A stretch of 64,000 bases of DNA, from the IMG/VR virus record IMGVR_UViG_3300020731_000015, positions 11,271 to 75,270 of that record, one strand, 5' to 3'. Position numbers and translations under genes: made by a program. This DNA comes from a virus. The notes beneath the pieces were generated by a model that saw only the letters and a program-made list of their open reading frames with translations, searched no databases and was not told the DNA's origin. Within the stretch, counting starts at the first letter, position 1. Each line of letters begins with the position of its first letter. This document shows positions 25,758-45,986 of the stretch, piece after piece.

Positions 25758-28073
25758 GTGTCAGAAAACATCTTCTCGCAGATTGAGTCTTGGATTCGCA
25801 TCGTTAAAGATGCCAACGAGTCGCTCGCAACGGTTATGCGACACGACCAAGACCACGACAATTGGCACAGAATGCACGGTGACGCACCTTGCACTTCAGA
25901 GGCAGACTGCGCAGCAAAGCGCGCCAAATACGCAGAGGTGAAAGACGAGCAGGCAGTCACTAAGGGAGACTTGCCGGGCCACGAGTTCCACGGGAACCAG
26001 TACGAGGCTGGAGAGGGCGGTGGTGGAAATCTCACCCCCTCTGGGCACCGTCCGTTGAACGAGATTGCTCGTGACATCGAAAAGGTTTGGAATGCGAACA
26101 GCAAGAATGGCGTTCACTATACCGCCAAACCATACCTAGACGCACTAAAGCAACTCCACGACATCAAAGACAACTATATGTTTGACAGTGCCAAGAGCGT
26201 TGTCAACTACTTGCTCTCCAATATGGGAACTTTCCGTGGTGAAGGCGCCCCCGAATTAAAAAACGAATTAAAAGCACTGGTCAAACAATACACCGCAGGT
26301 AGTGGTGGCGGGAAGACCGCTCAAATCACTAGTGACTCAAAAACCAAGCCGACCGCAAGCGGCCCAGCAGCAAACCTCGCTAGGACTCACACGAGTATCA
26401 ACAACGCACTAAAGGCTGCGGTATCAGCAAACGGCGACCTCAAAGACTTGATTAGTACTTCTAAGTCATCAAAGACACGGGGCTACTACGGAACCGTTGG
26501 TGATGACGACCTTATGTGGGGAACACACCTAGACCTCAAGGACGCCCACGAAAAGTTGGCCGCCTTGCACACACGCGCCGCAACACAGGCAACCAAAGTT
26601 GGCGACACGGAACTAGCAAACGCTCATATTCAGGCGGCCAATGCTCACCGTTTGGCTGCTGAAACGGCAAACGACCGCCGTAATCGTGGTGGCGACACCA
26701 CCCCTAGCCAAGCAGAAGTCAAGGAAGCGCAAGACACCGCTAGAAAGAGCGCTCGTGCTATTTCGGCCTCGCAGAAAATCCTAGATGGCTCGAAGACCGC
26801 TCAAATCACCAGCGATTCGCAAACTAGAAGCGGAACATCCAATGTAAAGTTTGGACCATCTGAAACAAGCAAGATGCGTAGCGAGGCTGCTCGCCTTTCC
26901 AACCAAGTTCTTCACAAAGAAGACGCAGAGACAGATGCGCACGTTGCTCACATCGAACTCGCTAATAGCCACGCTAACGCCGCTAGGAGTGCTAGGGAAG
27001 ATGGGCTAAACAAATTAGCCAACGCTCACCAGAACGCTGCGAACGCTCACGCTAATGCTGCTGTTGCCACTACTTTGGGTGGCGACAACTACCCCAAACT
27101 CGCTCAAGCCGCTGGTGTTGCGACTGCTAAGGCCGACAACATCAACTACGAGCGCCCTATCAATGACGGAATTGCTGGTGGCATTATCGCTAGTGACTCG
27201 CAGACCAAGCCAAGCACAAGTGGCTTGGCTGACCGTGCTAACGACTTGGCAGAAAACGCCGAGCGAATGGAGCCAGAAGAGGTCGCCCAAGAACACGATG
27301 AAATCGCACAGGGCCACAAGGATGCCGCTAGCGATGCTAAGGCGGCCCTAGACACTTTTAAGGCAGAAAACGAAAAGAATCCAGTTGTTTCAGCAGACAA
27401 GCACATCGCTGACCTGCAAAACGAGATTGACGCACACAAGCAAGCGGCCGAAGAGCACGAAATGGCCGCCGATAGCCAAAGAGCCTCTGCGGGAAATAAC
27501 TATGAATATCAAGAAGCCGCTCAAGGTGCTACTGACTCGGCTGCTGATGCTTCGGTTAGGGCCACTAAAGCATCGGATATTGCTAGTGGAACTATTACTA
27601 AGGCCGACCAAATGGGCCACGAGTTCCGAGGCAACCAATATTCACAAGGACAAGGTGGCGGTTCAGCACCAGCGCGCCGTGTAGATGAGGGTCGTTGGAA
27701 TCCCGGCGACTGGAATCCCGGCGACCACCCGGTTTTGCCACTACACCCCGACTTCCCCGAACACCGAGTAGGAAGCCCATTCCAAACTAATCAGTGGGAG
27801 CCGCCAATACACAGAACGCCGGATGCGCCCTACACCACTAGGCCAACTATTTCACCAGACGGCCATCAAGAACCCGAAGCAGGCAATCCTTTCCGCTCTA
27901 ACCAATGGCACCCAGATGGAACTCGCCTACACGGAATGCCAGAAATCACACAACCAGAACAAGGGCCATCTACTCATCAAGAGGGTGGCGTGGGAAACCG
28001 ATTCAACCCCACTAGCCCAAGCAAAGTTCTAGATTACTTGCGCTCCAAGTATAGAGCCCGTGACAATGGCTAA
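25758..28073 (+). CDS. Tagged cargo protein 1 (two GHxFxGNQ tags, His/Ala helical repeats)
   Basis: GGAGG RBS before GTG 25758; leader FSQIESWIRIVK; tags at 25962 and 27600. Confidence 0.8.
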   Translation: MSENIFSQIESWIRIVKDANESLATVMRHDQDHDNWHRMHGDAPCTSEADCAAKRAKYAEVKDEQAVTKGDLPGHEFHGNQYEAGEGGGGNLTPSGHRPLNEIARDIEKVWNANSKNGVHYTAKPYLDALKQLHDIKDNYMFDSAKSVVNYLLSNMGTFRGEGAPELKNELKALVKQYTAGSGGGKTAQITSDSKTKPTASGPAANLARTHTSINNALKAAVSANGDLKDLISTSKSSKTRGYYGTVGDDDLMWGTHLDLKDAHEKLAALHTRAATQATKVGDTELANAHIQAANAHRLAAETANDRRNRGGDTTPSQAEVKEAQDTARKSARAISASQKILDGSKTAQITSDSQTRSGTSNVKFGPSETSKMRSEAARLSNQVLHKEDAETDAHVAHIELANSHANAARSAREDGLNKLANAHQNAANAHANAAVATTLGGDNYPKLAQAAGVATAKADNINYERPINDGIAGGIIASDSQTKPSTSGLADRANDLAENAERMEPEEVAQEHDEIAQGHKDAASDAKAALDTFKAENEKNPVVSADKHIADLQNEIDAHKQAAEEHEMAADSQRASAGNNYEYQEAAQGATDSAADASVRATKASDIASGTITKADQMGHEFRGNQYSQGQGGGSAPARRVDEGRWNPGDWNPGDHPVLPLHPDFPEHRVGSPFQTNQWEPPIHRTPDAPYTTRPTISPDGHQEPEAGNPFRSNQWHPDGTRLHGMPEITQPEQGPSTHQEGGVGNRFNPTSPSKVLDYLRSKYRARDNG

Positions 28074-29217
28074 TGACTTCTTTGCTGAAATAGAGGCGTG
28101 GGTTCGTATTGCTAAGGCAAAGCCCGACTACACCGAGTTGATTTCAGACCGCAAAGGCGAGCCTGACAACCAGAAGTTATACGACCAAGTAAAGGCCGAT
28201 GCCCAGAAGAAGTTTGATGTCTATCCATCAGCAGTGGCAAACGGCTGGGTCGTTCAGGAATACAAGCGTCGTGGCGGAACATACTCCAAGCCAGTAGCCA
28301 AAGGCGACTTACCGGGTCACGAGTTTCGAGGAAACCAATATGCGTCGGCTGGCGGAACGGCACAAATCACTAGCGAATCACAGACCGCACCACTAAACGC
28401 TGCTAGTGCTGCGAAAGACCTCGCTACTAAGGCAAACGACCTTTACGAGAAGAACCAGATTGACAAGTTCGACAAGACTATGCCCGCTAGTGTCGCTTCC
28501 AAGATTGGAAAAGACCATTGGGATATGGCTATCGAACACCAAAAAGAAGCAGAGCGTTTGTCAAACGAAGACGAGACTCACCTCAACTCTGAAATCGGTC
28601 ACGCCGACGCTTCTGATGAGCACTACAACGCCGCTAAACGGTGGGGCGTAGTTGCCGATATGCTGAATGGCACATACGGCCCAAGTCAACTCAATGTTGA
28701 TAGCGCTATCGCTGCGGCCAAAGAAGCATCTGGCTCTGCTACTGATGCCTCTTCTAACATTATCCCAGAAGCGGCTCACGAAGACACTATTGCTCAAAAC
28801 GGCGGTCCAAATGTCGCTAAGCCACTATACGGTTTTAGTGTCAAAAACGCAGGAAACATCAAGAGCGATGTCGAGGCGAGTTATATCGCTTCTGCCCTCC
28901 ACGAACACCTAGTAATAGGTGCTGGACACCCAGACGACACAGAAGTTCGCACCCCAGCGGATTACAAAGTGGGTGCGAGTCAGCACTATCAGTTGGCCCA
29001 GTATTACGCAGGGAAAGCACAAAGCGGCCCACAGAAAGCCGAATACCAAAAGGCTGCTGATGCTCACATTGCTGCGTATAAAGCCTGTGAAAAAGCGGCT
29101 AGTGCTGGAACGAAAGAGCCATCAAAGGCAAGCGTGGCTGCCGTTGCTGACACAGCGAGGGTTGCCGATAGGGCATCGTTTAATCTGGGCGAAACCTATA
29201 TGAACAATAGAAAGTAA
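28066..29217 (+). CDS. Tagged cargo protein 2 (DUF5872-like domain, His/Ala repeats)
   Basis: Leader FFAEIEAWVRIAK; LYDQVK...YPSA...VQEYKRRGGTY; tag at 28300. Confidence 0.8.
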   Translation: MANDFFAEIEAWVRIAKAKPDYTELISDRKGEPDNQKLYDQVKADAQKKFDVYPSAVANGWVVQEYKRRGGTYSKPVAKGDLPGHEFRGNQYASAGGTAQITSESQTAPLNAASAAKDLATKANDLYEKNQIDKFDKTMPASVASKIGKDHWDMAIEHQKEAERLSNEDETHLNSEIGHADASDEHYNAAKRWGVVADMLNGTYGPSQLNVDSAIAAAKEASGSATDASSNIIPEAAHEDTIAQNGGPNVAKPLYGFSVKNAGNIKSDVEASYIASALHEHLVIGAGHPDDTEVRTPADYKVGASQHYQLAQYYAGKAQSGPQKAEYQKAADAHIAAYKACEKAASAGTKEPSKASVAAVADTARVADRASFNLGETYMNNRK

Positions 29218-29221
29218 AACA

Positions 29222-30571
29222 ATGGCTAGGGATTTCTTTGCTGAAGTAGAATCGTGGATTCGTGTTGCCAAGGGCGATGTGGTTGGCCACGAGTTTCACG
29301 GGAACCAGTATCAGTCGGCTAGCGAAACGACACAAATCACTAGTGAATCGCAGACTAGCCCCGCTAGCCGTGCTTCGGAAATCGCTGCTAGGGCTAACGC
29401 ACTAGTTGATGGTATCTGGCACGACCCGGGTTCACCAGTATTACGAGATGAACACTCTGAAATAGCAGATGAACACTTTGCGGAAGCCAATAGAGTTCGT
29501 TCTACCAACCCAGCGTTGGCTGACGCCCACGTAGAGGCCGGCAACGCTCACGAGGATGCCCACAACGCTCACTCAATGGCACACACTTACATTAGTGATG
29601 AGAACGATGACCGTGCTGAAGCCGCAACTAGTAGGGCTATTCGGGCTAGTAGGAATGTCGAAGCACTAGCCAACGGAACTGCCACCGCCCCAAGTGCTAC
29701 TCCAACACCTACCCCAAACCCCAATAAGTTCTCGCACCCTTATCAGACTCAATACAGCGCGCCAAACTACCTAGCGCAAGCGGCCAAGAATGTTGCTGAT
29801 AGGCATCTAGATGTTGCGGTCGCTGGCGATAAGCCAGAAGACCTAAACGCCCTTGCTGACGAGCACCAAAAAATTGCCGAGGGTCTTCGTGATGTCGCTG
29901 ACCAGAAAGCGATTGCTGCTAGAACTGCCCAGACACAGGCGGCATCATTGGGCCGCCAAGACCCTGATGAGGGTGAGAAACTCGGAACCGGGCGTGAAGC
30001 AACGGAACGACCAGCCAACGTGACTGCTGAATCATTAGCCGACAAGTATTCCCCAGCAGGCGCATCGAACTCGGATGCGAACCGTAATCGGATTGCCGGT
30101 ATGACTTCTAGCCGTTTGGAAGACCTAAAGTTGGCCTCAAACTCGATGTCCAAACTTGCTGATATGAGTCACGGCTACGCATCTAGCCGAGTTCGTGGCG
30201 AATTGGGAAGTATCCGAGAGGCTATCCAAAGCCGAATCACAGACCTCAAGAACGAGGCAAAGGCCGGTGGCTCTAAGTTCGTTCAGGGTCAAGGAAACCA
30301 GCCAACTCGCACTTCTGCTGATTACAAGAACCTGATTTCCAAACTAACTAGTGCTTCTAAGTCCGTTTCTGAACTACGCAACGCTATTCGTAGCACGAAT
30401 CTCCAAAGCACGAACCACTACTACCACTCTGGTCAATTTGCCAAAGATGCCCCAGCCGTAGCCGATAAGGTGGCGGACGCTACACAGGCCTACAACGATT
30501 TCTATCGTGGAACTGATGGCAAGGATACGGGCTACTTCGCAAATGACCGATTTAAGAAGTCGGTTGGCTGA
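29222..30571 (+). CDS. Tagged cargo protein 3 (His/Ala helical repeats)
   Basis: MARDFFAEVESWIRVAKGDVVGHEFHGNQY. Confidence 0.8.
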   Translation: MARDFFAEVESWIRVAKGDVVGHEFHGNQYQSASETTQITSESQTSPASRASEIAARANALVDGIWHDPGSPVLRDEHSEIADEHFAEANRVRSTNPALADAHVEAGNAHEDAHNAHSMAHTYISDENDDRAEAATSRAIRASRNVEALANGTATAPSATPTPTPNPNKFSHPYQTQYSAPNYLAQAAKNVADRHLDVAVAGDKPEDLNALADEHQKIAEGLRDVADQKAIAARTAQTQAASLGRQDPDEGEKLGTGREATERPANVTAESLADKYSPAGASNSDANRNRIAGMTSSRLEDLKLASNSMSKLADMSHGYASSRVRGELGSIREAIQSRITDLKNEAKAGGSKFVQGQGNQPTRTSADYKNLISKLTSASKSVSELRNAIRSTNLQSTNHYYHSGQFAKDAPAVADKVADATQAYNDFYRGTDGKDTGYFANDRFKKSVG

Positions 30572-30601
30572 AAAATCACAACCCTGTGAAAGAATAGAAC
30601 T

Positions 30602-31822
30602 ATGGAAAACTTTGCTGCTGAAATCGAATCTTGGGTCCGAATCGCTAAGGGCGGGCCGGGCTCGGGAGATACCCCCGGTCACGAGTTCAATGGAAACCAA
30701 TACACCGACGCGAGTGGTGCTATCGCGGGCATTTCCAAACTTCGTGGGCTTTCAGGAGAACTCAAGTCAATAGTTGATGAACTAAATGGCAAGTTTTACC
30801 CACAGGGATTTACGCTGCGAGCCAAACCAGCAGATAAGTACGACAAAGACAGAATGTATGGGGAAAACTCATATAGTTCTTTTGCGCGCTATGTCACCCC
30901 AGAGAAACTAAAAGAAACACAGAGCAAACTTGAGGGGTTGGCCGACCAAGTGGATTCTCTAGTTGCTGGAGTTCGCCGTTCAGCAGCCGTTCACTCGGAC
31001 ACATCACCCACGATAGACAAGTTTGGTGGAGGCGAGTGGAAACTCGGACAAGACGAAGTTGGTAAGCACTTTTTAGAAGCCTCTAAGTCGCTTGAGGCTT
31101 TATCAGACAACTTGCGTGGTGCGGCATCCATAATGAGCCACTCGGCAAACAAGGCGGTTTCAGTCAAATCACCTCGCCCAATGGCGGATGATGGCTATCC
31201 TGCTTTCGGCTCTTCCGAACCAAAAGCCTTTGACGCCGTTAAAGGCGAGGATGTTCTATCAACGAAGTTGGCGATTTCACGCTATTCGGGTCACGAAAGC
31301 AGTTTGGGAGAACAAGTTGATGCGATTTCCAAACTCTTTGACAAGTCGGAACTATCGCTTTCTCGTGCGGCTATCGCTATAGCGAAAGACCCCTCAAAAG
31401 AACCTAACGAGGCAAAGGCCGCTTCTGATTCAGCCAAGTTCGAGTCGAAGTCAAAGGAGTACACTGCTTCTGCTGATGCTATGGAAAAAGACATTGAGGC
31501 TAAGTACGATATGGTCAAAAAAGACTATGACCTCGATGAAGACGGTAGGCCTATTCGTTATGGCCCCCAACACTCGGAAGAACTAGATGAATACGAAGAG
31601 GCAAAAGACAAGCAAGATGTCGTTCTCTCACGCGCCAAAGTAGCGGCGGTATCGGCTAGTAATGCCTACTCTGTAATGGCTCACTTTGCTTCGCAGCGTG
31701 GCGACACCGAAGCCGCCAAGCAAGCGCAAGAAAAAGCCAGCGAAATGCTGAAAGTGGCGCGCTATAGCGAATCTCGCTGGCCAGATGCGGTCAATCATTA
31801 CGATGACTACGATGGCGAATAA
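30602..31822 (+). CDS. Tagged cargo protein 4
   Basis: MENFAAEIESWVRIAKGGPGSGDTPGHEFNGNQY. Confidence 0.8.
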   Translation: MENFAAEIESWVRIAKGGPGSGDTPGHEFNGNQYTDASGAIAGISKLRGLSGELKSIVDELNGKFYPQGFTLRAKPADKYDKDRMYGENSYSSFARYVTPEKLKETQSKLEGLADQVDSLVAGVRRSAAVHSDTSPTIDKFGGGEWKLGQDEVGKHFLEASKSLEALSDNLRGAASIMSHSANKAVSVKSPRPMADDGYPAFGSSEPKAFDAVKGEDVLSTKLAISRYSGHESSLGEQVDAISKLFDKSELSLSRAAIAIAKDPSKEPNEAKAASDSAKFESKSKEYTASADAMEKDIEAKYDMVKKDYDLDEDGRPIRYGPQHSEELDEYEEAKDKQDVVLSRAKVAAVSASNAYSVMAHFASQRGDTEAAKQAQEKASEMLKVARYSESRWPDAVNHYDDYDGE

Positions 31823-31828
31823 CAACAA

Positions 31829-34126
31829 ATGTCATCTATCCAAGATGTCCGAAAGTTCCTTGTTAGAGAACGGTTTGTGGTCCTCAAGGGCGACTATGTT
31901 GGCCACCCCTTTCGTGGAAACCAATACTCCGACTTAGGCTCTGCTGAACACCTACAAGAAGCGAATAGAGCCGCTAGAGAAACGGATTCGCTCAAAAGAG
32001 AGGGCCGTCGTAGGTATGGTCGTTCTCACGGATATTCCCTTGATGGCGACCTAGCAAAAGCATCGCTCGATGCCCTTGACCACGCGGCATCAGCAAAAGC
32101 CAAAGTAGGCGTTCTTAAAACAACAATATCTGAACTAGAAGAAAAGATTAAGAGAAACGGTGGCGACCCCAAAACTCCGATAGACGGATTCCACGACTCC
32201 GTTGAGGTGCGACAACTCAAAGACAACTTACAGCGTTCCCAAGAACAGTTAAGCCATATAACTAGCGGGAATATGAAGTTTCGTATTTCTTGGAACAAAT
32301 CACTAACTAGCGAGCAAATGAGCAAGCAGGCCGCATCCGCGCTGAATCGTGGATACAAGGAAGTTCTCAACAAATTATCTTCGATGCCCGGCGTGACTAT
32401 GCCGAAAGCCAAGTCGCTTCTTGACAACAAGAACAACCCTCGCCCAGAGGCTCTAAAGGTTCTTCAGAACGATGTCAAGCAGATAGACTCAATCGCCAAG
32501 AAAGATGCCAAAACAGCGCAAGACGAAAGTGCGAGCCCAGAAGATAGGTATAACGCAACTGTCGGCTTGCGAAACTCATCGAAGAACGCCCTCTCTGCCC
32601 ACACCTTTCTTGAGCAAGTCTATCGGATTAGTGGAGACACTACTAACCAAGATGCTGAAGCAAAAATCGTTGAGAAAGCAAAAGCGTCTATTGGGAAAGC
32701 GGACGAACATTACACAAATAATTTCGCTCAAATAACACTTTCATACGCCAAAGAGAGCATCGATAAGGCTAGTAAGACGATTGACCTAAGTGGAGTCAAC
32801 CTATTCAGCATCAGCCCGGAACAGAAACAAACGATTTCCGATGCAAAAAGTCTTTACTCGAACGCCTACAGAATACTTAGTGATGCCAGACTAGGCAATA
32901 CTGATGAGGCTAGGTTGGCAAGAGACAATTCTCAACAAGCAAACGCACTCCTAAATACCGCTAGGTCTAACGAACTAAAAGCAACCCTAGACGGGTCAAT
33001 GAAGAACATAGGTAAGGCAACTGCTGATAAGAGCGCCTATGAGAACACCCAAAAGGCCGAGCGCGATTATCGCACTTTCCAATCGGCGGTTGGCGAGGCT
33101 AAGTCGAATTGGAACGGCCTATTATCTAACTACGGTGGTGCTTCATCACCAGAGTTAAATGCAAAAGCACAGAGCAACGCTATCGGATTAGCGAACCAAC
33201 TAGAACTCGTACAAAAGACCGCTGGTTTGGCTATCGGTAAGGAATACCTAAAAACGGCTAGTGACTCCCTAAAGTTCGTTCGTGAAAACCTCGGAAACAC
33301 AGACCCAGCCGTGGCGGAAAAGGCCGACAAACTTATTACCGAAGCATCAAGTGCAGCCAATACAGCAAGAGGGCTATTCTCAAAAGAATCTCGCTACTAT
33401 TCATCAAGCGCACCAGCGACAAGTGGTTTGGAAAACGAGTGGAATCAGGCATCTAGGTTTGAGAAAGAATGCACCGCCTACTCCAATGCTGTTCGTGGAA
33501 CATCTCTTTTGGAAAAAGGTCTAGCGGAAACAAGGAGTATGCCCGAAAAGGTGGATATGAGTGACATCGGCCAAGATGACCCCAATAGTTATGTATCCCT
33601 AAAGGCTAAAGCCGCGGGAACTTTGGATGACTCGTTCGGCTACCTAACGCGCGGAGTTGAAGCAATCGACAAATCAGACCTTTTCAGCAAAGACGAAAAA
33701 CAAGAACTTATTGGCAAACTTAAGGACCAAGCCACCCAAGCGGGTAAGGAACTTGCCGATATCAACTTTAAGTTCTATAGAGATGGTCTTGACTCTATGG
33801 TTGTCAACGGTAGTAAGGAATTGGAAAAATCCAAAGACACCGATGACGATAACCCTATGTATGCCTCTACTAAGGCAGAAAAACTATTGGTGCAGGCTAC
33901 CTATCTTGCTGATTCTATAGAAAACAGTATCGCTCACAAGGAACTTAGTGGTTCGCTACTAGTTGGTCACTTCCAAGACAAGACCCCGCTACAACTCAAT
34001 TCCGAGCAAGTAAAGCAACTCAAGGAAACCCTCGCCAAGCATAGTGTTGCTGAAATCCAGCAAAAAGCCGATGAAGCGAAGCAGGGCCAGCGCGCTTTCT
34101 ATCGCCTACGCCAATACGCCCTGTAA
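31829..34126 (+). CDS. Tagged cargo protein 5 (long alpha-helical protein)
   Basis: VVLKGDYVGHPFRGNQY at 31886. Confidence 0.8.
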   Translation: MSSIQDVRKFLVRERFVVLKGDYVGHPFRGNQYSDLGSAEHLQEANRAARETDSLKREGRRRYGRSHGYSLDGDLAKASLDALDHAASAKAKVGVLKTTISELEEKIKRNGGDPKTPIDGFHDSVEVRQLKDNLQRSQEQLSHITSGNMKFRISWNKSLTSEQMSKQAASALNRGYKEVLNKLSSMPGVTMPKAKSLLDNKNNPRPEALKVLQNDVKQIDSIAKKDAKTAQDESASPEDRYNATVGLRNSSKNALSAHTFLEQVYRISGDTTNQDAEAKIVEKAKASIGKADEHYTNNFAQITLSYAKESIDKASKTIDLSGVNLFSISPEQKQTISDAKSLYSNAYRILSDARLGNTDEARLARDNSQQANALLNTARSNELKATLDGSMKNIGKATADKSAYENTQKAERDYRTFQSAVGEAKSNWNGLLSNYGGASSPELNAKAQSNAIGLANQLELVQKTAGLAIGKEYLKTASDSLKFVRENLGNTDPAVAEKADKLITEASSAANTARGLFSKESRYYSSSAPATSGLENEWNQASRFEKECTAYSNAVRGTSLLEKGLAETRSMPEKVDMSDIGQDDPNSYVSLKAKAAGTLDDSFGYLTRGVEAIDKSDLFSKDEKQELIGKLKDQATQAGKELADINFKFYRDGLDSMVVNGSKELEKSKDTDDDNPMYASTKAEKLLVQATYLADSIENSIAHKELSGSLLVGHFQDKTPLQLNSEQVKQLKETLAKHSVAEIQQKADEAKQGQRAFYRLRQYAL

Positions 34127-34174
34127 TTTATCAACTGTGGTCTATTATCTATAACGAACGCAAGGGAGTTGCCT

Positions 34175-35596: not shown

Positions 35597-35609
35597 TACT
35601 AGAAAATCC

Positions 35610-35822
35610 GTGCGAAACCCCTTTGAGATAGAGGAACTCCTAAAATCCCCGCTTTACAAGCAGGTAGTTGACGGAGTGGTGAAACAGCCTCGCTATGTGC
35701 CTTTGGCCGAGCAACGCAAACACCCACAGGATTTCGGCTGGCTAGATGATGCCGTGCCAGATAACTATGTATTCCCAGAGGAAGACTCCGAAGACCCTAT
35801 GGGCGAATCACCTCTAGGGTAG
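35610..35822 (+). CDS. 70-aa hypothetical protein (3' end of track ORF 35052-35822)
   Basis: GTG 35610 follows the preceding stop; VRNPFEIEELLKSP... Confidence 0.5.
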   Translation: MRNPFEIEELLKSPLYKQVVDGVVKQPRYVPLAEQRKHPQDFGWLDDAVPDNYVFPEEDSEDPMGESPLG

Positions 35823-35886
35823 GTAAGCAATAGCGATTTGGAAATCGTAGTGTAGCCTTTCTCGTAGAGCGAAAGGAACTCCTTTT

Positions 35887-37878: not shown

Positions 37879-37904
37879 GAGCCTTAGTGTTCTAAGGTTT
37901 ACTC

Positions 37905-40190
37905 GTGAACTACAAAGATATTCTCTCTATCCTTAAGGCTGGCGTTGCTGGTCAATCTGGTGATAAAGACGGTCACGACTTTCGTGGCAATCAATGGACT
38001 GTTATGGGCCCTTGGGGTCAACCAGTTCCACGACCCCGTGACCCAGCGACTAACAAGCCCCTAAAGGGCGCAGCGTTGGCTGCTGAATTGGCACGACTCT
38101 ATCCGAGCCCGAACACGCCTATTCCAAACGCCCCTAAAACGACTGCCAAACCAGCCCCACCAAAGGTATCTGGCTCGACCCCTAAATCACCAAAAGCCCC
38201 CAAAGCACCAAAGGCTACGCCAGCACTCGCACCAACCCCTACACCGGTCGCTACAACCCCTACAACGCCCCCTAAGCCCGTTGATGAAGCACCAAAGGCC
38301 GAAGCCCCAAAGGTAGAGGAAGTCAAGCCAGAAGAGCCTAAAAAGGTCGAGGATAACCGAGTTATCACGGAAGAGGGTCAGAAGTCTATTCAGGAACGAA
38401 TTGCCGATGCTGAAAAGTGGGAACCCAAAACTGATTTGGAAAAGCGGGCTTCCGAAGCCGCCTCGAAAATCGCCGCCGCAATCCTCGTTCCAAAAGAACG
38501 CCGACCCCTATTCGTAAAGAATCTCACTACGGTTCTCACCCAGCCAAAGGCTTTTAGAGATGCCGTTGCACAAGCCAAAACCGTAGAAGTCAACGACCGT
38601 GTTAGAGACAACGCAGCGATGCTGAAAATGATTGGCTTTACGGGTCTTCCAAAGGTCGTATCGGAAGCAGAGTTTAAGGCCACACCCGGCAAGGTCGCCT
38701 ACTCTGGTCTTTCGTACACTCGGAGTTCTACCCAAACACTTCAGCAGAAGTTAGCGACGCTTTACAACGGGGAGTTCCCACGCTACGGCGGTCCTATGTT
38801 CGGTGCGGCGTTCTACACATCCGAGAGCAAAGATGTGCCGGTTTCATACGCCCAAAAGAATGGGGCTAGTGGAACAAATACCTGTATCTTTCGCAACAAG
38901 TTAGTTGACCCCAACAATGTCTATAACGCATCTGGCAACGGCCCAATGATTAAATTGGATGTCTTATCAGCAACGGCTAGGGAAGACCACGGCAAGTATT
39001 CGGCTATGGACCACCCTGACTACAATCTCCGAGAAATTATGTCGGATGCTGGATACACCGATGACGAAATCAACCGAATTGATGGCAAGGGAAGCCAGCA
39101 AGGTATCTTTAGTGGAGACAACAACTGTAAGAGTATCGGCCCAGCCCTAGCGGGATACGATGCGCTGAAAGATACCCACCACAACTACACAATGGTTCTA
39201 AATCGTGGGGCTATGGTCCTACCTGACACCTACGCAACCAATATCCAACATCAAGGTTCGTTTGGGCCAGAGGGAGCAGCAAATGTGTCTGACAATGTTC
39301 CTGTGGATTCGGCTTACGCAATCTCCGTGCCTACGCCAAAAGCACCCGAAGATGATGAGCAAGATGTCGCTAAAGGTGAATCTGACGGACACCCTTATCG
39401 TGGCAACCAATATGGGCCGGGCAAGAGTGATGGCACTCCTGAAAAGCCAAAGCCACTACCCGGGTCTGAAGAAGAAACGGAAGAAGTAGTAAAGAAACTC
39501 ACCGAGGATATGAAGTTGCCTCCTGCTGTTATCCGTATGGGTATCCAAGTAGCCCGACCACTTCTCGCAGAAGCCGCTAAATACGAACCGGCTATCACCA
39601 AAGCGATTTCTCAATCCGTAAAAGAGAGTGGCGGAACTCGAAAGCGCGCTCAATCTGCCGTAAAGTCACTCTCTAGTGCTACCGAAAAGGCGGTTAGGGA
39701 TACCGCCGATTCTGTCCAAAAGGGCTTGACTGCTGAAATCACATCTAACTCCCTTTCCAAAGAAGCCGGAGAAATCCACGACCTCGTTCGCTATACGGTT
39801 ATCTGGCCACAAAAGGAAATAGCAAGCGGCGCGAACAAGATGATACAGAGCCTCGCCAATAAGGGCTTCGTTCCATACAAAGACGAGAACGGCACGGAGA
39901 TGGTGAAAAACTACTTCCACGATAGGCCGGGAAACTCATACCGAGGCATCAATGCCAACTTCGTTGACCCCAAGAGTGGAATGGTCTTTGAGGTTCAGTT
40001 CCACACACTCCAAAGCCTTGATACTGCTGAAAAGATGCACAAAATATATGACAGTATTCGCAAACTAGATAAGACCGACCCAGTTTACGAAAAGGGGCAG
40101 GAAAAGATGCGAGCGGGCTTCGCACAGGTAAAAATCCCACCGGGAATTGACTCGGTTGGAAATGTCTGGTTCAAGAAGGCTATAATTTAG
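37905..40190 (+). CDS. Tagged cargo protein 8: possible ART-like domain plus an Apk2/RelA-SpoT-like nucleotidyltransferase
   Basis: Tags at 37935 and 39372; IHDLVRYT, KNYF, YRGINANF, FEVQFHT, HKIY. Confidence 0.8.
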   Translation: MNYKDILSILKAGVAGQSGDKDGHDFRGNQWTVMGPWGQPVPRPRDPATNKPLKGAALAAELARLYPSPNTPIPNAPKTTAKPAPPKVSGSTPKSPKAPKAPKATPALAPTPTPVATTPTTPPKPVDEAPKAEAPKVEEVKPEEPKKVEDNRVITEEGQKSIQERIADAEKWEPKTDLEKRASEAASKIAAAILVPKERRPLFVKNLTTVLTQPKAFRDAVAQAKTVEVNDRVRDNAAMLKMIGFTGLPKVVSEAEFKATPGKVAYSGLSYTRSSTQTLQQKLATLYNGEFPRYGGPMFGAAFYTSESKDVPVSYAQKNGASGTNTCIFRNKLVDPNNVYNASGNGPMIKLDVLSATAREDHGKYSAMDHPDYNLREIMSDAGYTDDEINRIDGKGSQQGIFSGDNNCKSIGPALAGYDALKDTHHNYTMVLNRGAMVLPDTYATNIQHQGSFGPEGAANVSDNVPVDSAYAISVPTPKAPEDDEQDVAKGESDGHPYRGNQYGPGKSDGTPEKPKPLPGSEEETEEVVKKLTEDMKLPPAVIRMGIQVARPLLAEAAKYEPAITKAISQSVKESGGTRKRAQSAVKSLSSATEKAVRDTADSVQKGLTAEITSNSLSKEAGEIHDLVRYTVIWPQKEIASGANKMIQSLANKGFVPYKDENGTEMVKNYFHDRPGNSYRGINANFVDPKSGMVFEVQFHTLQSLDTAEKMHKIYDSIRKLDKTDPVYEKGQEKMRAGFAQVKIPPGIDSVGNVWFKKAII

Positions 40191-40192
40191 GT

Positions 40193-40408
40193 ATGGATTG
40201 GATTTACTACGAACGCCGATACAAAGACGGCTCTTTGGCCGCTGGGTATCGCTATGACAACGAGCATCGTGGTGAAATCCTTACGGCTAACGGCTGGCAA
40301 CACTCCGACAACTTCTTCCACAAACTAATCACGGGCGACAACGCCCTACGCCAATTAGAGGGAATCCCCGGTTGGGCCTATAACGAACAGGGAAACTTGA
40401 TTCAGTAG
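40193..40408 (+). CDS. Probable immunity protein (IapK-like) for the upstream toxin domain
   Basis: 71 aa, starts 2 nt after the toxin stop; WIYY...GWQHSDNFF..LITGD; carries no tag. Confidence 0.55.
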   Translation: MDWIYYERRYKDGSLAAGYRYDNEHRGEILTANGWQHSDNFFHKLITGDNALRQLEGIPGWAYNEQGNLIQ

Positions 40409-40446
40409 GGTAAAGTATCGGGAATCCTAGTTTGGAAAGGCCCGTT

Positions 40447-41334
40447 ATGACTTCGGACATCAATGCTGAAATCTTGGCGTGGGTCCGACTAGCAAAGGCT
40501 GGCGATACCAAAGGTCACGCTTTTCACGGCAATCAGTATCAAGAGGGCGAGAGTGGTGGCGAAGCCCCAGCCCGACAGGTAGATTCGAGTCGCTATCAGG
40601 CAAATGGTCGCTACGGAACTGCTGAAACCACCGAATCAATCAAGCCGACAGTTGCCGAAAAGCCAAAGCCCGCCGAACTTCCAAACCACGACACCCGCAT
40701 AAAGAGCGACCCAGCCGATACCTCTCCAAAAGGCATAAAGAATTGGGCTCGAGAAATCCACTTCGCGCTCACTCGTGGCGAGCAACCCATTATCTCCGCC
40801 CAGCACTTCCCCGCCTTGATTGCTGAAATGGCCCGAACGAACTCAAAGGGCAACGACATAACCAACATCCGTATTGACGGAACTCGCCTTATGGGATTAG
40901 ACGGAAAGGGCTACTCTCGCAGCAAAATGCCCCAAATTGACGAGAGCGAACGCCCCCAATTCCTAAAGGATATTGAGAAGTCAGACGGAATCACCGTAAA
41001 GCCAATGTCCGTTGACCCCACGACCCTAAAGCCAATCCAAAAGGAAATCAACGGCGACAAGTCTGGGGCGATTATGAAGAAGAACCCAGATGGTATTCCC
41101 GACAATATGCGAATCTTGGTTTCCAAAGATGGTTATGTAGTGGATGGACACCACACTTGGGCCGCTGCCGTTGCGCTGAAATTGGCAGGAAAGTCGGCTC
41201 AATTCCCGGTCTATCAACTCTCCTGTGACTGGAAGAAAGCGATGGATGTCGGCCTCGCTTGGGATAAGGAACACAATGTTCCCCTACAAGGATTTGATAC
41301 CAAGCCACCGGTTTTATCAAAATCCGTGAAATAA
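40447..41334 (+). CDS. Tagged cargo protein 9: ParB/Srx-like domain
   Basis: Leader INAEILAWVRLAK, tag at 40495; LKPIQKEI, ILVSKDGYVVDGHHTWAA. Confidence 0.8.
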   Translation: MTSDINAEILAWVRLAKAGDTKGHAFHGNQYQEGESGGEAPARQVDSSRYQANGRYGTAETTESIKPTVAEKPKPAELPNHDTRIKSDPADTSPKGIKNWAREIHFALTRGEQPIISAQHFPALIAEMARTNSKGNDITNIRIDGTRLMGLDGKGYSRSKMPQIDESERPQFLKDIEKSDGITVKPMSVDPTTLKPIQKEINGDKSGAIMKKNPDGIPDNMRILVSKDGYVVDGHHTWAAAVALKLAGKSAQFPVYQLSCDWKKAMDVGLAWDKEHNVPLQGFDTKPPVLSKSVK

Positions 41335-41341
41335 TAGGATT

Positions 41342-41749
41342 ATGACGAACGCATCAGATTTCAGCAGAGGCAATTTGCTTGGCCCAGATGGGGTTTATCG
41401 TGAGTTCATCAAGGGTGATTTCTCTGGCCACGTCTTTCGTGGCAACCAGCACTCGGTCGGTGGCGTAGGTCACTTCGACCCTTGGCGCGCAACCCTAATG
41501 ACTATCTGTGCTTCGGGCCACCAGAACACCATCGGCGTTCCCCCAACTTGGATTGAGCGTGATGCTCAAGGTAAGCCAACTGGTCAGTTCACGGCGGGAA
41601 CCCAGAGCCGTATGTGCGCTACTTGTTCCAAACCTCTACCTAACCGTTGGAAGTTGATAAACGGACAGAAGTTTATTCAGCCCGACAAGCAACCCGTGAC
41701 GAGCGCAAACCAATGGCTTTACGGTGGAGTAAAGAACTATGTCAAGTAG
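41342..41749 (+). CDS. Tagged cargo protein 10: Zn-ribbon protein
   Basis: FIKGDFSGHVFRGNQH; CASGH...CATC. Confidence 0.75.
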   Translation: MTNASDFSRGNLLGPDGVYREFIKGDFSGHVFRGNQHSVGGVGHFDPWRATLMTICASGHQNTIGVPPTWIERDAQGKPTGQFTAGTQSRMCATCSKPLPNRWKLINGQKFIQPDKQPVTSANQWLYGGVKNYVK

Positions 41750-44700
41750 TTTGGAAAAGCAAGTCTTCCAGCCGAACTTCGTAAAGTTCACCAACACGGA
41801 AATCGTTGACCGCAACCCTATTTCTGGCACGACTTTCTTTGGAAACCAGAACAACGGCTTCCAACTCGTTAAGTTTGCTGATGGCTCTAACGGAGTTGAG
41901 AAGCGACTCAAGCATTGGGTCGGGAACAAGACTGGTCGCCTCTATCGTGGCGAACTTCTCGGTGCGCAGGAATACCTAGCGGCTCGTGTGGGCGAAGTAA
42001 TGAACGCCCCTATCCGTGACTGCCACTTCACTAGCAAAGACGCACAGAGTATCGTTATGCCGTTTATTGATGGGCGCTCTGGTGCTGAAATGAACGATAA
42101 GGATATCCCCGACACTCCACAAGGAGTAGCCCTACGACTATTTGACTACCTAGTAGCCAACGCAGACCGACGCCCCAAGAATATTATGTTTGCTGATAAC
42201 GGAAACATAGTGGGTATTGACCACGCCCTTTGTAATTTCCGGCCTCGTGAGCCTAAGCCAGAGTTGATTACTATCCTTTGGAACGGCGGAGTCACCCTAA
42301 GTAGTTTGGAAATCCTAAAGCCAAAACTGCTTGCTCTCGGTGGTTTGTTTTCCCAAATGGGTATGACAGAAAAGTTTGGAAACCTAATCGGCAACCTCGA
42401 CCGATTGATTGCGGCTTTCACCAAAATCCAAAATATCGCGGTGGCTAAGGCCGCCTTTGACTCACAGACCCCACCACAAGCCGTTCAACAAGCAGCGAAA
42501 CAGGCTTTGGAGTGGATAGCAGACGGCAAGGCTGGTAGGAACTTTACCTCGGTAGGTCGTAAAAGGGCTTCAGACCTCGCTCACGGACACCCAGTATCCC
42601 TAGAAACCCTAAAGCGTATGAAAGCCTACTTTGATAGGCACGGCGTTGATAAGCAGACCCCACATTGGAACGAGCCAAGCCCCGGCAAGGTGGCGTGGTA
42701 TGCGTGGGGTGGAGATGCTGGCTACTCGTGGGCTAAGAAGATGGTCGCTCGTGCTGAAAAGGCCGCAGAAGCGGTCCGTAAAGATGCCGACACCGATAGG
42801 AAAAAAGCGGACGCGAAACTAAAGGAAGCAGAAGCACTAGCGGCAGAAGCCTTTGATTTTCGCCGTAGGGAACACTTTGAGTCGGCCGCCAACGCTCACG
42901 CCAATGCCTCACGCTTATTCTTTGAGGCTTCCAAACTCTACGGAAATGACGAGAATGGTGATGCCGTAAGCGCACTCGCTAGGGGAAACTCGGAGAAAGA
43001 CCTAGCCGAATCCGCCCGATTTACAGACCAGATGGGCGAACAACACAGTCCTGCTGAAATCCACGATGGAACTTGGGTGGATGGGGGTGCTTGGGCTGGC
43101 GGAACCGACCCGGTGGAAAAGGGAGATGTCGTAGGACACGAGTTCCACGGGAATCAATGGACCGGAGATGAATACGACTTCAATAAGGATTCTTACGACC
43201 ACAATGCTTGGGGTTCGCCACTCAAGTATGACTCTTGGACAGGGGCAACGACCGAAGACAAGTCAGAAAAAGTTGGTGATTATGTCTTTAATTCTAGGTT
43301 GCCTAGTAGCGAATACATCGCTTATATGAAGTCGCACTTTTCATACAACAACATACCAACGCCAGACAAACTAACCACTAACTGGAAAGATGAAATGGCG
43401 AAAGCACGGAGTAAGTATGTCGTTAGTGATGTATGGGCTACGAAAATAAACGACAAATTGCGAAAAGACAAAGCACTTAGCCCCAAGCAACAAACGGAGT
43501 TTGAGGCCGTAAAGAAATGGGCCGAGTCAGAAACGATTATCAAACCGGTATCGCTATACCGAGTGTCTATCTTGCCTGATGCTGTTTTGGACAAACTGCA
43601 GCCCGGAACTTCCTACTTGGAAAAAGGATTCCAATCCACTTCCATATCACCATCAGATATGATTAATTACGGAGTATCCCGAAGATTGGGTGGGGATACC
43701 CATACGGCTATTAGCGGCAATAGGGTTTATTTTAGGCTCAACGCACCAAAGGGAACGAAAGCCGTTGACGCTTACTCGGAAGAAGTGGTATTGCCACCCA
43801 ACACGCAAGTTTCAGTCACTAGCCGAGCAACCGACAAGATGGGTAATACCTACATCACGGCAGATATCAATAATAGCACGGAAGTCAAAAAGGGCGACTC
43901 GCCCGGTCACGAGTTTCACGGCAATCAGTACGAGGCAGGTATCGTTTCCAAACTAGATGCTGGCGAGAGCCCCGAAATCGCTTCTGCTGATTTGCCCGGT
44001 CTGGTTTCTGGCATCCACGACTTAGGTTCTCGTGGTCACGGATACGACATTACGAACCTAAAAGTTGATGGAGAAAAGCCTTTCCAAACTGACCACGATG
44101 CTGATTTGCTTCGTGAGCATATGCCCCAAATACTCCCAAGCCAACGAGCAGAGTTCCTCAAGGATATTCAGAGCGAATACGGAATTGTAAGCAAGGCAGA
44201 AGAGGTCAACCCCAAAACCCTAAAGCCCTCACAAACAGAGATTGATGGTTGGAAGACGGGTGGCGTTTATAAGGAGTTTGCTGAAAAGGGCATACCCGCC
44301 GAGCGCGCTCCACTCGTTTCTAGCGACAACTACATTATTGACGGACACCACTATTGGTCGGCGGCAATCGCCCTAAAAGCCGCAAACCCCGACTACAAAC
44401 TCCCTATTCGCCGTTTATCCTGCGACCTAGACACGGCACTAAAGGTTGCTAACCAATGGCACGACAAGGTTGGCAACCCACGCCTATCGCTGGGCGATAC
44501 CCAAGTTTCCAAATCAGGAGTAGCCGGACAATCTGGTGATAAAGAGGGCCACGCCTTTAGAGGCAACCAATGGTGGATGATGGGGCCAGACGGAGTTCCA
44601 GTTCCACGCCCTCGAGCACCTAAAACCGATACGGGAGACAAGACACCAGCGGCCCCTAAAGCCCCAAGGGTATCAACCCCACGCGCTCCAAAAGCCACGC

Positions 44701-45986
44701 CAACTGCTGAAACGCCTAAGCCTATCTACCAAGAAGACCTCAAAGTTCCATACGGCAAGGGAGTTATTCCGCCGGGCTGGAAGAAAACTGGCACGACTTC
44801 GGTAGTTATCCCGTCTAGAGATTGGAGTAAGCCGCCGAAGATAGTTAATTGCACAACCTTTTCTTCAGCAAAGGGCAACACCGCTATTATCGGCACAAGA
44901 GCGCGTGGGTGGAAGATAGGCGACCGATACACCAATACCGTCTTGATGACGATTGACAGATTTGCTACGGGAAAGCAAGTTGAGTTTGTTCACACTCTAA
45001 GACAAGGCGCGAACACCCTTGCTTCTGTCTCTTTGGGAAATCCAAACTCCCTAATGATTGGCCGCTATGGAATTATTGGTAGAGACTTAAAGGCGGGCAT
45101 AGAAAAGTATCGCCCCAACTACCAAACAGATGATACGACACCAGAGGCAATCAAGGCTCAAGCCGATTGGGATTCCCTAAAGGATACGGCAGTCGCACAG
45201 GCAAAGGGTGAAATCAACACCCAAGAGGGTCGTGATGCTTTGGATAAGGTCGAGGCAACGCTTCAGGCTACTGATAATTCCAATTTGGCTAAGGGCTTTA
45301 CGATTGACAAGTTGGGCCGAACTTGGAACACGGGCGACCTATTTATGTCCTCCCAACGCCGTATTGAGTCAACGATTATCCACGAACTAGGCCACTCCAA
45401 CTTCTTTAGTGATGGCAAAAAAATAACCGATGTAATCCCAGAACTCCAAAAGTCTTTGGGTAGCAAAGTAGACCTTTCTAAAGAAAACGAGAGCGGCAAA
45501 AGGGGTTTCGTAAGAAACATCAAGACCCCCGCCCTCAATTTCGGTGGAAAGACAATAGTTCCTAGAGGTGAAGTTAAAGACTTTCTAGATAAACACGAGC
45601 CCGGCATCTACCCTCTCTCGTTGGATACAACGAAAGCCCTCAAAGCGATTGGTGGAACCAAATACGGAACGAGCAGTCTCCAAGAGTTAGGTGCTGAATC
45701 GTTCGCCCAATTCCAACTAGGGATAACCCAATCGCCCATAACCCAAGCCTTTGCTACCTCTCTCGGCTGGCAACAGGCTGGAACTACGGTAGCCAAGTCT
45801 GGTAGCGTTGCTGATATGAGTCAATCCCAATCCCCCAATGTTTACTACTCGCCAGAGTTCGGTGGGGAAGTCGCACGGGTATTCCTAGAGGATTCCCTTG
45901 ATGGCCCACGCCTTGTGGTTGGTGATTCGGTGGAAAACTACGGCCACCCAGACCAGACTGACGACTCGACTGAAGACGAGGAATAA
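41739..45986 (+). CDS. Tagged polyvalent protein 11: PI3/4K-like kinase, WGGDAG domain, ADP-ribosyltransferase, ParB-like domain, zincin peptidase
   Basis: FDYLVANADRRPKN..IDH; AWYAWGGDAG; LYR..FQSTS..SEEVVL; IIDGHH; IIHELGH..KYG...QELGAE; three tags. Confidence 0.85.
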   Translation: MSSSLEKQVFQPNFVKFTNTEIVDRNPISGTTFFGNQNNGFQLVKFADGSNGVEKRLKHWVGNKTGRLYRGELLGAQEYLAARVGEVMNAPIRDCHFTSKDAQSIVMPFIDGRSGAEMNDKDIPDTPQGVALRLFDYLVANADRRPKNIMFADNGNIVGIDHALCNFRPREPKPELITILWNGGVTLSSLEILKPKLLALGGLFSQMGMTEKFGNLIGNLDRLIAAFTKIQNIAVAKAAFDSQTPPQAVQQAAKQALEWIADGKAGRNFTSVGRKRASDLAHGHPVSLETLKRMKAYFDRHGVDKQTPHWNEPSPGKVAWYAWGGDAGYSWAKKMVARAEKAAEAVRKDADTDRKKADAKLKEAEALAAEAFDFRRREHFESAANAHANASRLFFEASKLYGNDENGDAVSALARGNSEKDLAESARFTDQMGEQHSPAEIHDGTWVDGGAWAGGTDPVEKGDVVGHEFHGNQWTGDEYDFNKDSYDHNAWGSPLKYDSWTGATTEDKSEKVGDYVFNSRLPSSEYIAYMKSHFSYNNIPTPDKLTTNWKDEMAKARSKYVVSDVWATKINDKLRKDKALSPKQQTEFEAVKKWAESETIIKPVSLYRVSILPDAVLDKLQPGTSYLEKGFQSTSISPSDMINYGVSRRLGGDTHTAISGNRVYFRLNAPKGTKAVDAYSEEVVLPPNTQVSVTSRATDKMGNTYITADINNSTEVKKGDSPGHEFHGNQYEAGIVSKLDAGESPEIASADLPGLVSGIHDLGSRGHGYDITNLKVDGEKPFQTDHDADLLREHMPQILPSQRAEFLKDIQSEYGIVSKAEEVNPKTLKPSQTEIDGWKTGGVYKEFAEKGIPAERAPLVSSDNYIIDGHHYWSAAIALKAANPDYKLPIRRLSCDLDTALKVANQWHDKVGNPRLSLGDTQVSKSGVAGQSGDKEGHAFRGNQWWMMGPDGVPVPRPRAPKTDTGDKTPAAPKAPRVSTPRAPKATPTAETPKPIYQEDLKVPYGKGVIPPGWKKTGTTSVVIPSRDWSKPPKIVNCTTFSSAKGNTAIIGTRARGWKIGDRYTNTVLMTIDRFATGKQVEFVHTLRQGANTLASVSLGNPNSLMIGRYGIIGRDLKAGIEKYRPNYQTDDTTPEAIKAQADWDSLKDTAVAQAKGEINTQEGRDALDKVEATLQATDNSNLAKGFTIDKLGRTWNTGDLFMSSQRRIESTIIHELGHSNFFSDGKKITDVIPELQKSLGSKVDLSKENESGKRGFVRNIKTPALNFGGKTIVPRGEVKDFLDKHEPGIYPLSLDTTKALKAIGGTKYGTSSLQELGAESFAQFQLGITQSPITQAFATSLGWQQAGTTVAKSGSVADMSQSQSPNVYYSPEFGGEVARVFLEDSLDGPRLVVGDSVENYGHPDQTDDSTEDEE

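Follow-up and report, generated by a model that had tools for sequence, protein, structure and literature searches.

A peptide tag repeated through the late genes of an uncultured phage

The window analysed here is a 64,000-nucleotide stretch of the IMG/VR virus record IMGVR_UViG_3300020731_000015, namely bases 11271-75270 of a linear 75,270-bp contig that CheckV rates as ~60% complete. On one strand, a portal gene is followed by the gene for an XkdF-type prohead protease precursor and then by a 20-kb array of open reading frames (ORFs). The 11 large ORFs of this array (25746-45986) contain 15 copies of a short peptide, 15/15 in frame on the + strand, with the pattern [VILF]-x-K-(0-7 residues)-GDxxGHxFxGNQ[YWH]. 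We refer to this peptide as the tag and to its portion from GD onward as the core. The presence of a WhiB-like gene in the contig and the 52% identity of the portal to those of the Arthrobacter phages Laroye and Waltz point to a probable actinobacterial host. Together with additional copies elsewhere in the contig, the arrangement suggests that about 20 module starts in this uncultured phage bear one short peptide just after a likely cut site of the head protease. The features are given below (aa, amino acids; a slash follows the Lys; the W-leader is described further on).

22029..23642, +, portal protein of the Portal_Mu type (PF06074 E=8e-35; phrog_113 E=8e-87)
23777..25681, +, prohead protease precursor, 634 aa, untagged, with a C-terminal XkdF (S78_2) domain at aa 496-614 (PF14550 E=1e-7; phrog_14859 E=4e-57)
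25746..28073, +, tagged ORF of 775 aa with two tags, a W-leader and His-rich helical repeats
25956..26003, +, tag 1, VTK/GD..GHEFHGNQY
27594..27641, +, tag 2, ITK/AD..GHEFRGNQY
28060..29217, +, tagged ORF of 385 aa: W-leader, DUF5872-like piece, tag, His-rich module
28294..28341, +, tag 3
29222..30571, +, tagged ORF of 449 aa with an N-terminal W-leader and tag
29264..29311, +, tag 4
30602..31822, +, tagged ORF of 406 aa: W-leader and tag with a 5-aa insert
30641..30703, +, tag 5, IAK/GGPGS-GD..
31829..34126, +, tagged ORF of 765 aa: N-terminal tag, long helical protein
31880..31927, +, tag 6
34169..35596, +, tagged ORF of 475 aa: 180-aa N-terminal domain, tag, His-rich module
34703..34750, +, tag 7
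35887..37878, +, tagged ORF of 663 aa: 317-aa N-terminal part, tag, His-rich module
36829..36876, +, tag 8
37905..40190, +, tagged ORF of 761 aa with two modules, the second small-alarmone-synthetase-like (PDB 8vx3, SaSAS, E=2e-10 at aa 617-751; C-terminal part of NF041399, E=3e-22)
37929..37997, +, tag 9, ILK/AGVAGQS-GD..
39366..39413, +, tag 10, VAK/GE..GHPYRGNQY
40193..40408, +, ORF of 71 aa without a tag
40432..41334, +, tagged ORF of 300 aa: W-leader, tag, disordered linker, ParB-like fold (AlphaFold2 model; homologous to an internal module of protein P0123)
40489..40539, +, tag 11
41342..41749, +, tagged ORF of 135 aa: leader, tag, Cys-rich module (49% identical to the final internal module of P0123, a 784-aa protein, when the leader is counted)
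41405..41452, +, tag 12
41739..45986, +, polyvalent-type ORF of 1415 aa: kinase-like part, tag, ADP-ribosyltransferase (ART), tag, ParB-like module, tag, module with a HELGH motif (PF03496 E=9e-5; phrog_2859)
43113..43160, +, tag 13
43884..43931, +, tag 14
44505..44573, +, tag 15, VSK/SGVAGQS-GD..

An earlier reading of the bare sequence, here called the original prediction, had placed 15 tags in these 11 ORFs. A six-frame scan of the whole window for GH.[FY].GNQ returned exactly the same 15 at the same Lys codons and none on the minus strand, and 50 shuffles of the window gave 0 matches to the tag pattern. The hydrophobic-x-Lys that the prediction saw before each tag also holds: numbered as for a protease site, P3 is Val, Ile, Leu or Phe in 15/15 tags, P1 is Lys in 15/15 and P1' is Gly, Ala or Ser. 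Its description of a Lys followed directly by GD stands for the Lys and needs loosening for the rest, as four tags (Lys codons at 30647, 37935, 40495 and 44511) have 1-7 residues inserted between Lys and the GD core, and two variant copies read K-AD and K-GE, one each. The 71-aa ORF at 40193-40408 is tagless, as had been noted for the short ORFs.

The codons of the tags were compared at the invariant residues. Third positions were identical at a frequency of 0.53 against 0.51 expected from codon usage; since they are no more alike than codon usage predicts, selection must have acted on the peptide, in agreement with the conservation at the protein level claimed before. The randomness of the synonymous sites also led us to reject a linker for recombination at the DNA level as an explanation.

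The original prediction listed tags directly downstream of the portal and protease; the whole contig has more. Four further complete tags and one that is cut by the contig start bring the number of copies to 20. These lie outside the window, in two ORFs, one 5'-open and at least 1021 aa long and one of 166 aa, directly upstream of a putative small terminase (a helix-turn-helix protein), with the large terminase ~6 kb beyond, in the contig region before the window. Because of these tagged ORFs upstream of the terminase genes, the tags are not confined to the block behind the portal and protease.

Several of the stand-alone ORFs open with an amphipathic leader of the form acidic-x-E-I-x-x-W-[VIL]-R-[VIL]-x-K, the W-leader. 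It was seen at the N terminus of six stand-alone tagged ORFs (window 25746-25810, 28060-28120, 29222-29270, 30602-30650 and 40432-40500; L011:3074-3130). Leaders resembling it are present in other K-type phages, those with Lys before the core; the remaining N-terminal leaders are unrelated to it. The W-leader could be the true capsid-targeting part.

Flanking residues and the candidate cut site

The array lies between the portal and protease genes on one side and the scaffold and major capsid protein (MCP) genes on the other, that is, among late or virion genes. On its 3' side are a transglycosylase-like gene, C5 methylase genes and nucleases, followed by the genes below and that of a giant fibre resembling collagen.

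52250..53047, +, scaffold-like protein (phrog_13547), two genes 5' of the MCP gene
53047..53544, +, head scaffolding-type protein (phrog_673)
53564..54565, +, MCP (phrog_1005, E=4e-96)

Scaffolds and the prohead protease itself are substrates that prohead proteases digest during head maturation. In the scaffold-like ORF at 52250-53047, the sequence hydrophobic-x-K-[GAS], with which every tag in this phage begins, occurs 8 times against 1.2 expected (p<0.002). The corresponding proteins of three other phages gave 8 against 1.5 (gp24 of Laroye, a cultured phage free of tags), 12 against 1.6 (G009) and 6 against 0.7 (G002), all with p<0.002, an enrichment of 5-8 fold over the four XkdF phages. 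The XkdF protein was enriched ~4-6 fold in 3/4 phages, including the precursor in the window (6 against 1.6, p=0.004); the XkdF-Zeta fusion of G002 was not enriched. The 765-aa tagged ORF (31829..34126) has 10 such sites against 4.1 expected (p=0.016). No enrichment was found in portal, MCP, terminase, tail or early proteins. Given this enrichment in established substrates of prohead proteases, hydrophobic-x-Lys followed by a small residue is likely the XkdF cut site, as judged from sequence, and it offers a testable specificity for the XkdF protease family. The 8-12 sites in the scaffold-like proteins of the window, Laroye and G009 lack the core, which suggests that cutting can proceed without it. 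The N-terminal half of the protease precursor in the window also has a poly-Ser tract of roughly 80 residues (window 24370-24620).

The core is universal among tagged proteins, whereas the preceding residues are the same throughout a given protein and change from one lineage to another. Flanks fell into the classes hydrophobic-x-K, [RK]-x-[LA], E-[FL], hydrophobic-x-E and rarer types; 165 proteins with multiple tags divided into 100 K-type, 47 non-K and 18 intermediate. Non-K contigs were recovered with DNA patterns specific for each class, and in the contigs found in this way every tag obeys the rule of its class. The Lys that the original prediction saw before each tag, although present in 15/15 tags here, is therefore only one of several lineage-specific residues before the core.

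XkdF was detected in 14/20 large K-type contigs (4/4 of the complete ones) compared to 0/13 non-K contigs (Fisher p=5e-5), and the non-K classes have other protease PHROGs (530/2229, 18402 and 15531). Flank type thus appears to follow protease type, but the lineages are few and related, so that the correlation is suggestive and does not amount to a proper comparative test. The proposed co-occurrence with XkdF was borne out by these counts; the proposed link to this particular combination of portal, MCP and XkdF was borne out in part, since K-type tags go with XkdF while four or more further types of portal or protease are also found alongside the same core. Searches for further protease families were largely negative. 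For S78 (PF04586), K-type contigs lacking an XkdF match gave one sub-threshold match, in a tagged 1337-aa ORF of G001, and non-K contigs gave two sub-threshold matches, with none in L162, a contig of the hydrophobic-x-Glu class. ClpP (PF00574) had no match in non-K contigs. Mu-like_Pro (PF10123) in K-type contigs without XkdF and S77 (PF03420) in L162 likewise had no match, in searches where the control was unmatched too.

Distribution, modules and carriers

A DNA pattern for K-GD-xx-GH-x-F-x-GNQ scanned against IMG/VR matched at least 119 stretches. Among 302 tags in the stretches listed, P3 was hydrophobic in ~80%, though the pattern had left P3 free. A tag profile of 40 columns, built from 119 tags in which the G, H, N and Q of the core are invariant in 119/119 or nearly all, was searched at E<=0.001 and returned 2,308 representative proteins (clusters) among 1.84 billion, 491 of them below 1e-10, with up to 9 tags per protein. 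None of the matches has an informative name, only "hypothetical protein" or labels derived from domains. The K-type pattern, the only one scanned against cellular genomes, was found in 2/185,579 species genomes, both as contigs of metagenome-assembled genomes (MAGs); apart from these two contigs, the K-type pattern is restricted to viral DNA. The profile search suggested with the original prediction thus yielded a large family.

No Pfam, NCBIfam or PHROG model covers the tag, no PDB chain bears it, and the motif strings were not found in the literature searched. Papers on polyvalent proteins and MuF toxins (PMC5512222, PMC5576092) mention no such junction motif. What is new is therefore a widespread junction tag for which we found no published description, in line with the prediction's statement that none was known. 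No tag is present in the first 24 kb of Laroye, where its head genes lie, or in a contig of a gut phage whose portal is of the same type. Arrays in other genomes include 24 tags in G004 (121-kb, with terminal repeats), 10 in G002 (a complete 72-kb phage), 5 in G009 (54-kb) and 25 in a 69-kb contig; in complete or near-complete genomes they adjoin or surround the protease gene.

The distance from one tag to the next has a median of 215 aa, equivalent to one domain. Of the tags in a set of 244 proteins, 674 are internal and 108 are no more than 45 aa from the N terminus. The modules behind tags comprise ADP-ribosyltransferases of several families, PARP, ParB-like, GNAT and Zeta-toxin/AAA_33 kinase domains, as well as HipA-like, PI3/4-kinase-like, Tpt1/KptA, NUDIX, InPase, pentapeptide-repeat and 2H phosphoesterase domains and Acb1, a nuclease that counters CBASS (cyclic-oligonucleotide-based anti-phage signalling systems). 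Those of the window, predicted from sequence, are ARTs, alarmone-synthetase-like, ParB-like, kinase-like and zincin-like domains and His-rich helical proteins. Modules resembling toxins or anti-defence proteins had been anticipated behind the tag, and the Acb1, ART, Zeta-toxin kinase, alarmone-synthetase-like and ParB-like domains that relatives of this phage carry there agree with this.

The assignments within the 1415-aa ORF (41739-45986) are of unequal strength. Its ADPrib_exo_Tox match (E=9e-5) scores 22.3 bits, just below the curated cut-off of 23.4, and a weak kinase-like match (E=1.4e-4) is also below its cut-off. The ParB-like module is homologous to ORF 40432. The HELGH motif of the last module is visible, and no Pfam, NCBIfam or PDB match was obtained for a zincin-like identity. 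A small conserved domain at aa 257-331 (window 42500-42730) is also present in cultured phages of Synechococcus (S-CBS1/3), Roseobacter (CRP) and Vibrio; in the Synechococcus and Roseobacter records the match coincides with genes whose annotation is major capsid (or capsid and portal), and the domain may be a head-associated adaptor.

Comparison of homologues indicates that modules move as units that begin at the tag. The neighbouring ORFs 40432-41334 and 41342-41749, each with its own leader and tag, match modules three and four, which are consecutive, in P0123 (784 aa); ORF 41342 has a leader that aligns with a linker between modules of that protein. The position of several other modules varies, some proteins having them at the N terminus and others inside the chain. 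Protein P0078 is 99-100% identical to the 1415-aa protein minus exactly the ART module, and the break falls inside the core of the two flanking tags. The fused and separate forms and the gain or loss of an ART from tag to tag support the earlier proposal that the tag opens interchangeable modules. Such an indel and the varying order of modules would also be expected if the proteins were not virion cargo at all, but late polyvalent enzymes acting in the producing cell with the tag as a neutral linker that eases in-frame shuffling of modules; some tagged genes do lie outside the head block. We consider this very improbable. The random synonymous sites mean that the DNA provides little homology for recombination, strict conservation of a peptide over thousands of clusters demands a function at the protein level, and portal, MuF and protease proteins are among the fusion partners of the tag.

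An AlphaFold2 model of ORF 40432, made with 15 aligned homologues, gave values below 50 in the predicted local distance difference test (pLDDT) for aa 1-88, which comprise leader, tag and linker, and ~90 for the ParB-like fold at aa 90-290. Among the homologues, the linker from tag to fold ranges from ~20 to 90 residues. By this prediction the tag is a disordered linear motif. Ribosome skipping of the 2A type was considered and dropped, as many tags are only a few residues from the start codon. The invariance of G, H, N and Q, and the occurrence of the same core whatever the protease family, could be accounted for by a core that cleaves itself, for instance by Asn-dependent backbone cleavage at GNQ as in the maturation of some animal-virus capsids, so that modules would separate regardless of the protease. 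To this we give hardly any credence: known autocleaving sites need a surrounding fold while the tag is predicted to be unstructured, and the lineage-specific flanks and their match to the scaffold sites would be left unexplained.

Portal, MuF and protease proteins lie inside the phage head, and all three serve as carriers of tags. Tags follow the portal domain in P0090, P0117 and a Phage_portal_3 protein in L145, and tagged MuF proteins are P0014, P0025, P0071 and others in L145 and L162. In P0046 the order is Acb1, tag, an unassigned part (X), tag and XkdF protease, and a G002 protein (L160:5571-7010, - strand) reads XkdF, tag, Zeta-toxin kinase. Two tags bracket the protease domain in L162, and in G025 a tag precedes it. 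The MuF domain (PF04233) had no match anywhere in the 75-kb contig, in keeping with the prediction of a system without a visible MuF carrier; the likeness that it drew to MuF toxins without such a carrier holds for this contig only, since MuF, portal and protease carriers are common elsewhere.

These carriers need no added address, which raises the question of whether the tag is a processing junction and nothing more. The entire motif would then be an extended protease site, its P' side being held by an exosite shared by proteases of the HK97/assemblin fold, and loading would be brought about not by the core but by leaders, the W-leader among them, or by covalent attachment to a portal, MuF or protease carrier. 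This would agree with the conserved amphipathic leader that many stand-alone ORFs of this and other phages have ahead of their first tag, and with the co-variation of flanks with the protease. We nevertheless regard this explanation as unlikely, because the scaffold-like proteins with 8-12 hydrophobic-x-K-small sites and no core indicate that the protease does not need the core, an invariant P' side of 13 residues common to different protease families would be unusual, and some leaders are merely 4-5 aa long.

Three observations on proteins met in this comparison are recorded here. P0025 (1410 aa, tagged) has a weak intein-splicing match at aa 782-1031 (E=6e-5, below the Pfam cut-off), just past its MuF domain. 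In Laroye (L001, NC_041947; 12602-15502) the GenBank names "head maturation protease" for gp17 and "RNA ligase" for gp18 look wrong: by eye, gp17 has a MuF-type Cys motif, and gp18 has the two HxT motifs of 2H phosphoesterases and a C-terminal part like the XkdF domain of the window. Laroye gp18 would thus be an Acb1-like enzyme riding, untagged, on the protease in a cultured phage. P0147, which matched "maturation proteases" of Gordonia, Arthrobacter and Streptomyces phages, was set aside as a counter-example; the matched part has two HxT motifs and is dissimilar to the XkdF domain, and we therefore read P0147 as a 2H phosphoesterase.

A proposed two-part signal and its relation to known systems

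The reading that we favour, with moderate confidence, is that the tag is a bipartite signal on capsid-internal effector cargo, consisting of a head-protease cut site and a conserved linear motif that is read in trans. The residues before the core, here hydrophobic-x-Lys and then Gly, Ala or Ser, would be the site for the phage's own XkdF-type prohead protease. Within the procapsid, polyproteins would be split into modules at each tag and short N-terminal leaders would be removed in the same way, leaving the core GDxxGHxFxGNQ[YWH], disordered, at the new N terminus of each module. A partner common to very different phage heads would read the core in trans, most likely to load or hold the module in the procapsid and alternatively for ejection, and the modules would be delivered to the host along with the DNA. 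Four points of this scheme, namely that the tag is cut, that the proteins enter the virion, that the core acts as described and that the modules are injected into the host, are inferred.

As the core seems unneeded for cutting, is found on stand-alone proteins with very short leaders and would persist on the products, its most economical role would be in loading or retention in the procapsid or in passage during ejection. The narrower claim that the core is a capsid address is tentative and in our view rather doubtful. About as doubtful is the broader idea that it is a portable, near-universal address for head cargo, comparable to a signal peptide, with one receptor across heads whose portals, proteases and capsid proteins are unrelated.

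Several findings weigh against the bipartite signal. The core is identical over phages that differ in portal, MCP and protease families, so that its reader need not be a component of the head. The correlation of flank and protease comes from few, non-independent lineages, and in three non-K classes enrichment of the class motif in scaffold-like proteins could not be shown. The scaffold sites are coreless and the core appears dispensable for cutting, while in some predicted proteins just 4-5 aa precede the tag, and little would be gained by cutting there. Several tagged genes sit far from the head block. A tblastn search of GenBank phages with tag peptides of 53 and 24 aa, where the short queries were probably limiting, detected no cultured phage that bears the tag, and long tag-bearing proteins gave domain matches only, with no tagged cultured phage.

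The invariance of the core across unrelated head modules leaves room for a role on the host side. After injection the core could bind a conserved host factor or be processed in the host, so as to localise, activate or stabilise the effectors, with the head as the delivery route; a conserved target outside the virion fits the invariance, and the core is disordered and would stay on every module. We judge this to be quite unlikely. No host-binding motif like it is known, with no match in the PDB or the literature, the K-type pattern is absent from cellular genomes save the two MAG contigs, and the fusions to protease and portal make a host role less obvious.

If the bipartite signal operates as proposed, the system would resemble the internal proteins IPI-III and Alt of phage T4 with their capsid-targeting sequence (CTS). 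In T4, a short signal opens non-structural proteins, the prohead protease cuts at a hydrophobic-x-charged site, and enzymes including an ART are delivered with the DNA; here the first is seen in the genes alone and the other two are predicted. The CTS, which is not known outside T4-like phages, occupies the N terminus alone and is lost from the protein when an S77 protease cuts after Glu. The tag differs in that it also lies between the modules of polyproteins, would stay on the product, and occurs in thousands of clusters with unrelated head modules, here together with an XkdF protease and Lys. Accordingly, the defining feature of the T4 type, an N-terminal leader removed by a gp21-type S77 protease after L/I-x-Glu, is not what is found here, where an XkdF protease (PF14550) goes with a site ending in Lys and tags are also internal.

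The sites of phiKZ-like phages have a three-residue consensus ending in Glu with no downstream tag, and their proteins are not modular polyproteins with an embedded protease. The ejection or inner-body proteins of these phages (SPN3US, 201phi2-1) are akin to the system in another respect, as the abstracts of PMC5694885, PMC7411985 and PMC10052503 describe a prohead protease that cuts many head-internal proteins at a short consensus. By analogy, the tagged proteins may work like the T4 CTS and internal proteins and the processed ejection proteins of the phiKZ type, without the defining features of these systems (S77, a Glu site, an N-terminal-only leader).

The 1415-aa ORF combines several unrelated effector domains and is encoded among late or virion genes, and by these features the large proteins here appear to qualify as phage-type polyvalent proteins. 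Those are multi-domain proteins encoded beside virion genes, with ART, ParB-like, RelA/SpoT-like, kinase and zincin-like domains (PMC5512222). They were predicted to be injected and processed, with processing proposed to occur via an embedded metallopeptidase (Iyer, Burroughs, Anand, de Souza and Aravind, 2017, PMC5512222). That paper gives no junction motif, whereas here a conserved tag is present at every junction and also at the front of stand-alone ORFs, with a flank suggestive of the prohead protease. The junction tag and a role for the prohead protease are not part of the existing description.

MuF polymorphic toxins (Jamet et al., 2017, PMC5576092) share a head-internal MuF carrier and variable toxin domains with the tag-bearing relatives that have MuF, and the alarmone-synthetase-like module of the window resembles their pyrophosphokinase toxins. 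They carry one C-terminal toxin and belong to temperate phages or prophages, with an immunity gene (PMC5576092), whereas many modules are present here, the contig has no MuF domain, tag-bearing phages are apparently lytic, and the K-type tag is all but absent from cellular genomes. An N-terminal PF04233 domain with a C-terminal toxin, seen in other tag-bearing phages, and a prophage location are both lacking; in this phage it is not a MuF toxin system, though relatives use the MuF carrier. Encapsulin cargo-loading peptides are similar in that a short disordered peptide sends unrelated enzymes into a shell of the HK97 fold. They differ in being C-terminal, uncut, of another sequence and confined to cellular nanocompartments.

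Proteins injected with phage DNA are hard to predict from sequence, and few model systems (T4, P1, N4, phiKZ) are understood. With one conserved peptide at the start of thousands of modules that otherwise have no annotation, this hidden arsenal would become directly accessible. If the core is a universal address, the injected effectors of metagenomic phages would be recognisable by sequence alone, and the core would be a tool for loading chosen proteins into capsids. The fusions also suggest that some tailed phages may use true polyproteins with an embedded maturation protease, a strategy better known from eukaryotic RNA viruses.

A second repeated peptide was noted in the array. T-[AT]-Q-I-T-S-x-[SA]-x-T-x-P occurs in 8 copies on the + strand (window 26322, 26802, 28363, 29333, 35180, 36904, 37360 and 39735), often 5-10 aa past a tag or G-G-K, where it opens His-rich helical modules. 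Among the loci fetched it was found elsewhere only in the near-identical contig L061, which indicates that it is lineage-specific. Downstream of the array (window 46923-49925), there is one N-terminal half of a C5 cytosine methylase, whose motifs reach approximately position 167 of the Pfam model, and the three ORFs after it each match only the C-terminal end of that model; the cluster may be a split enzyme with alternative target-recognition subunits. The ORF at 58172-64000, of more than 1,940 aa and 3'-open, has collagen-like tail-fibre repeats and extends past the contig end.

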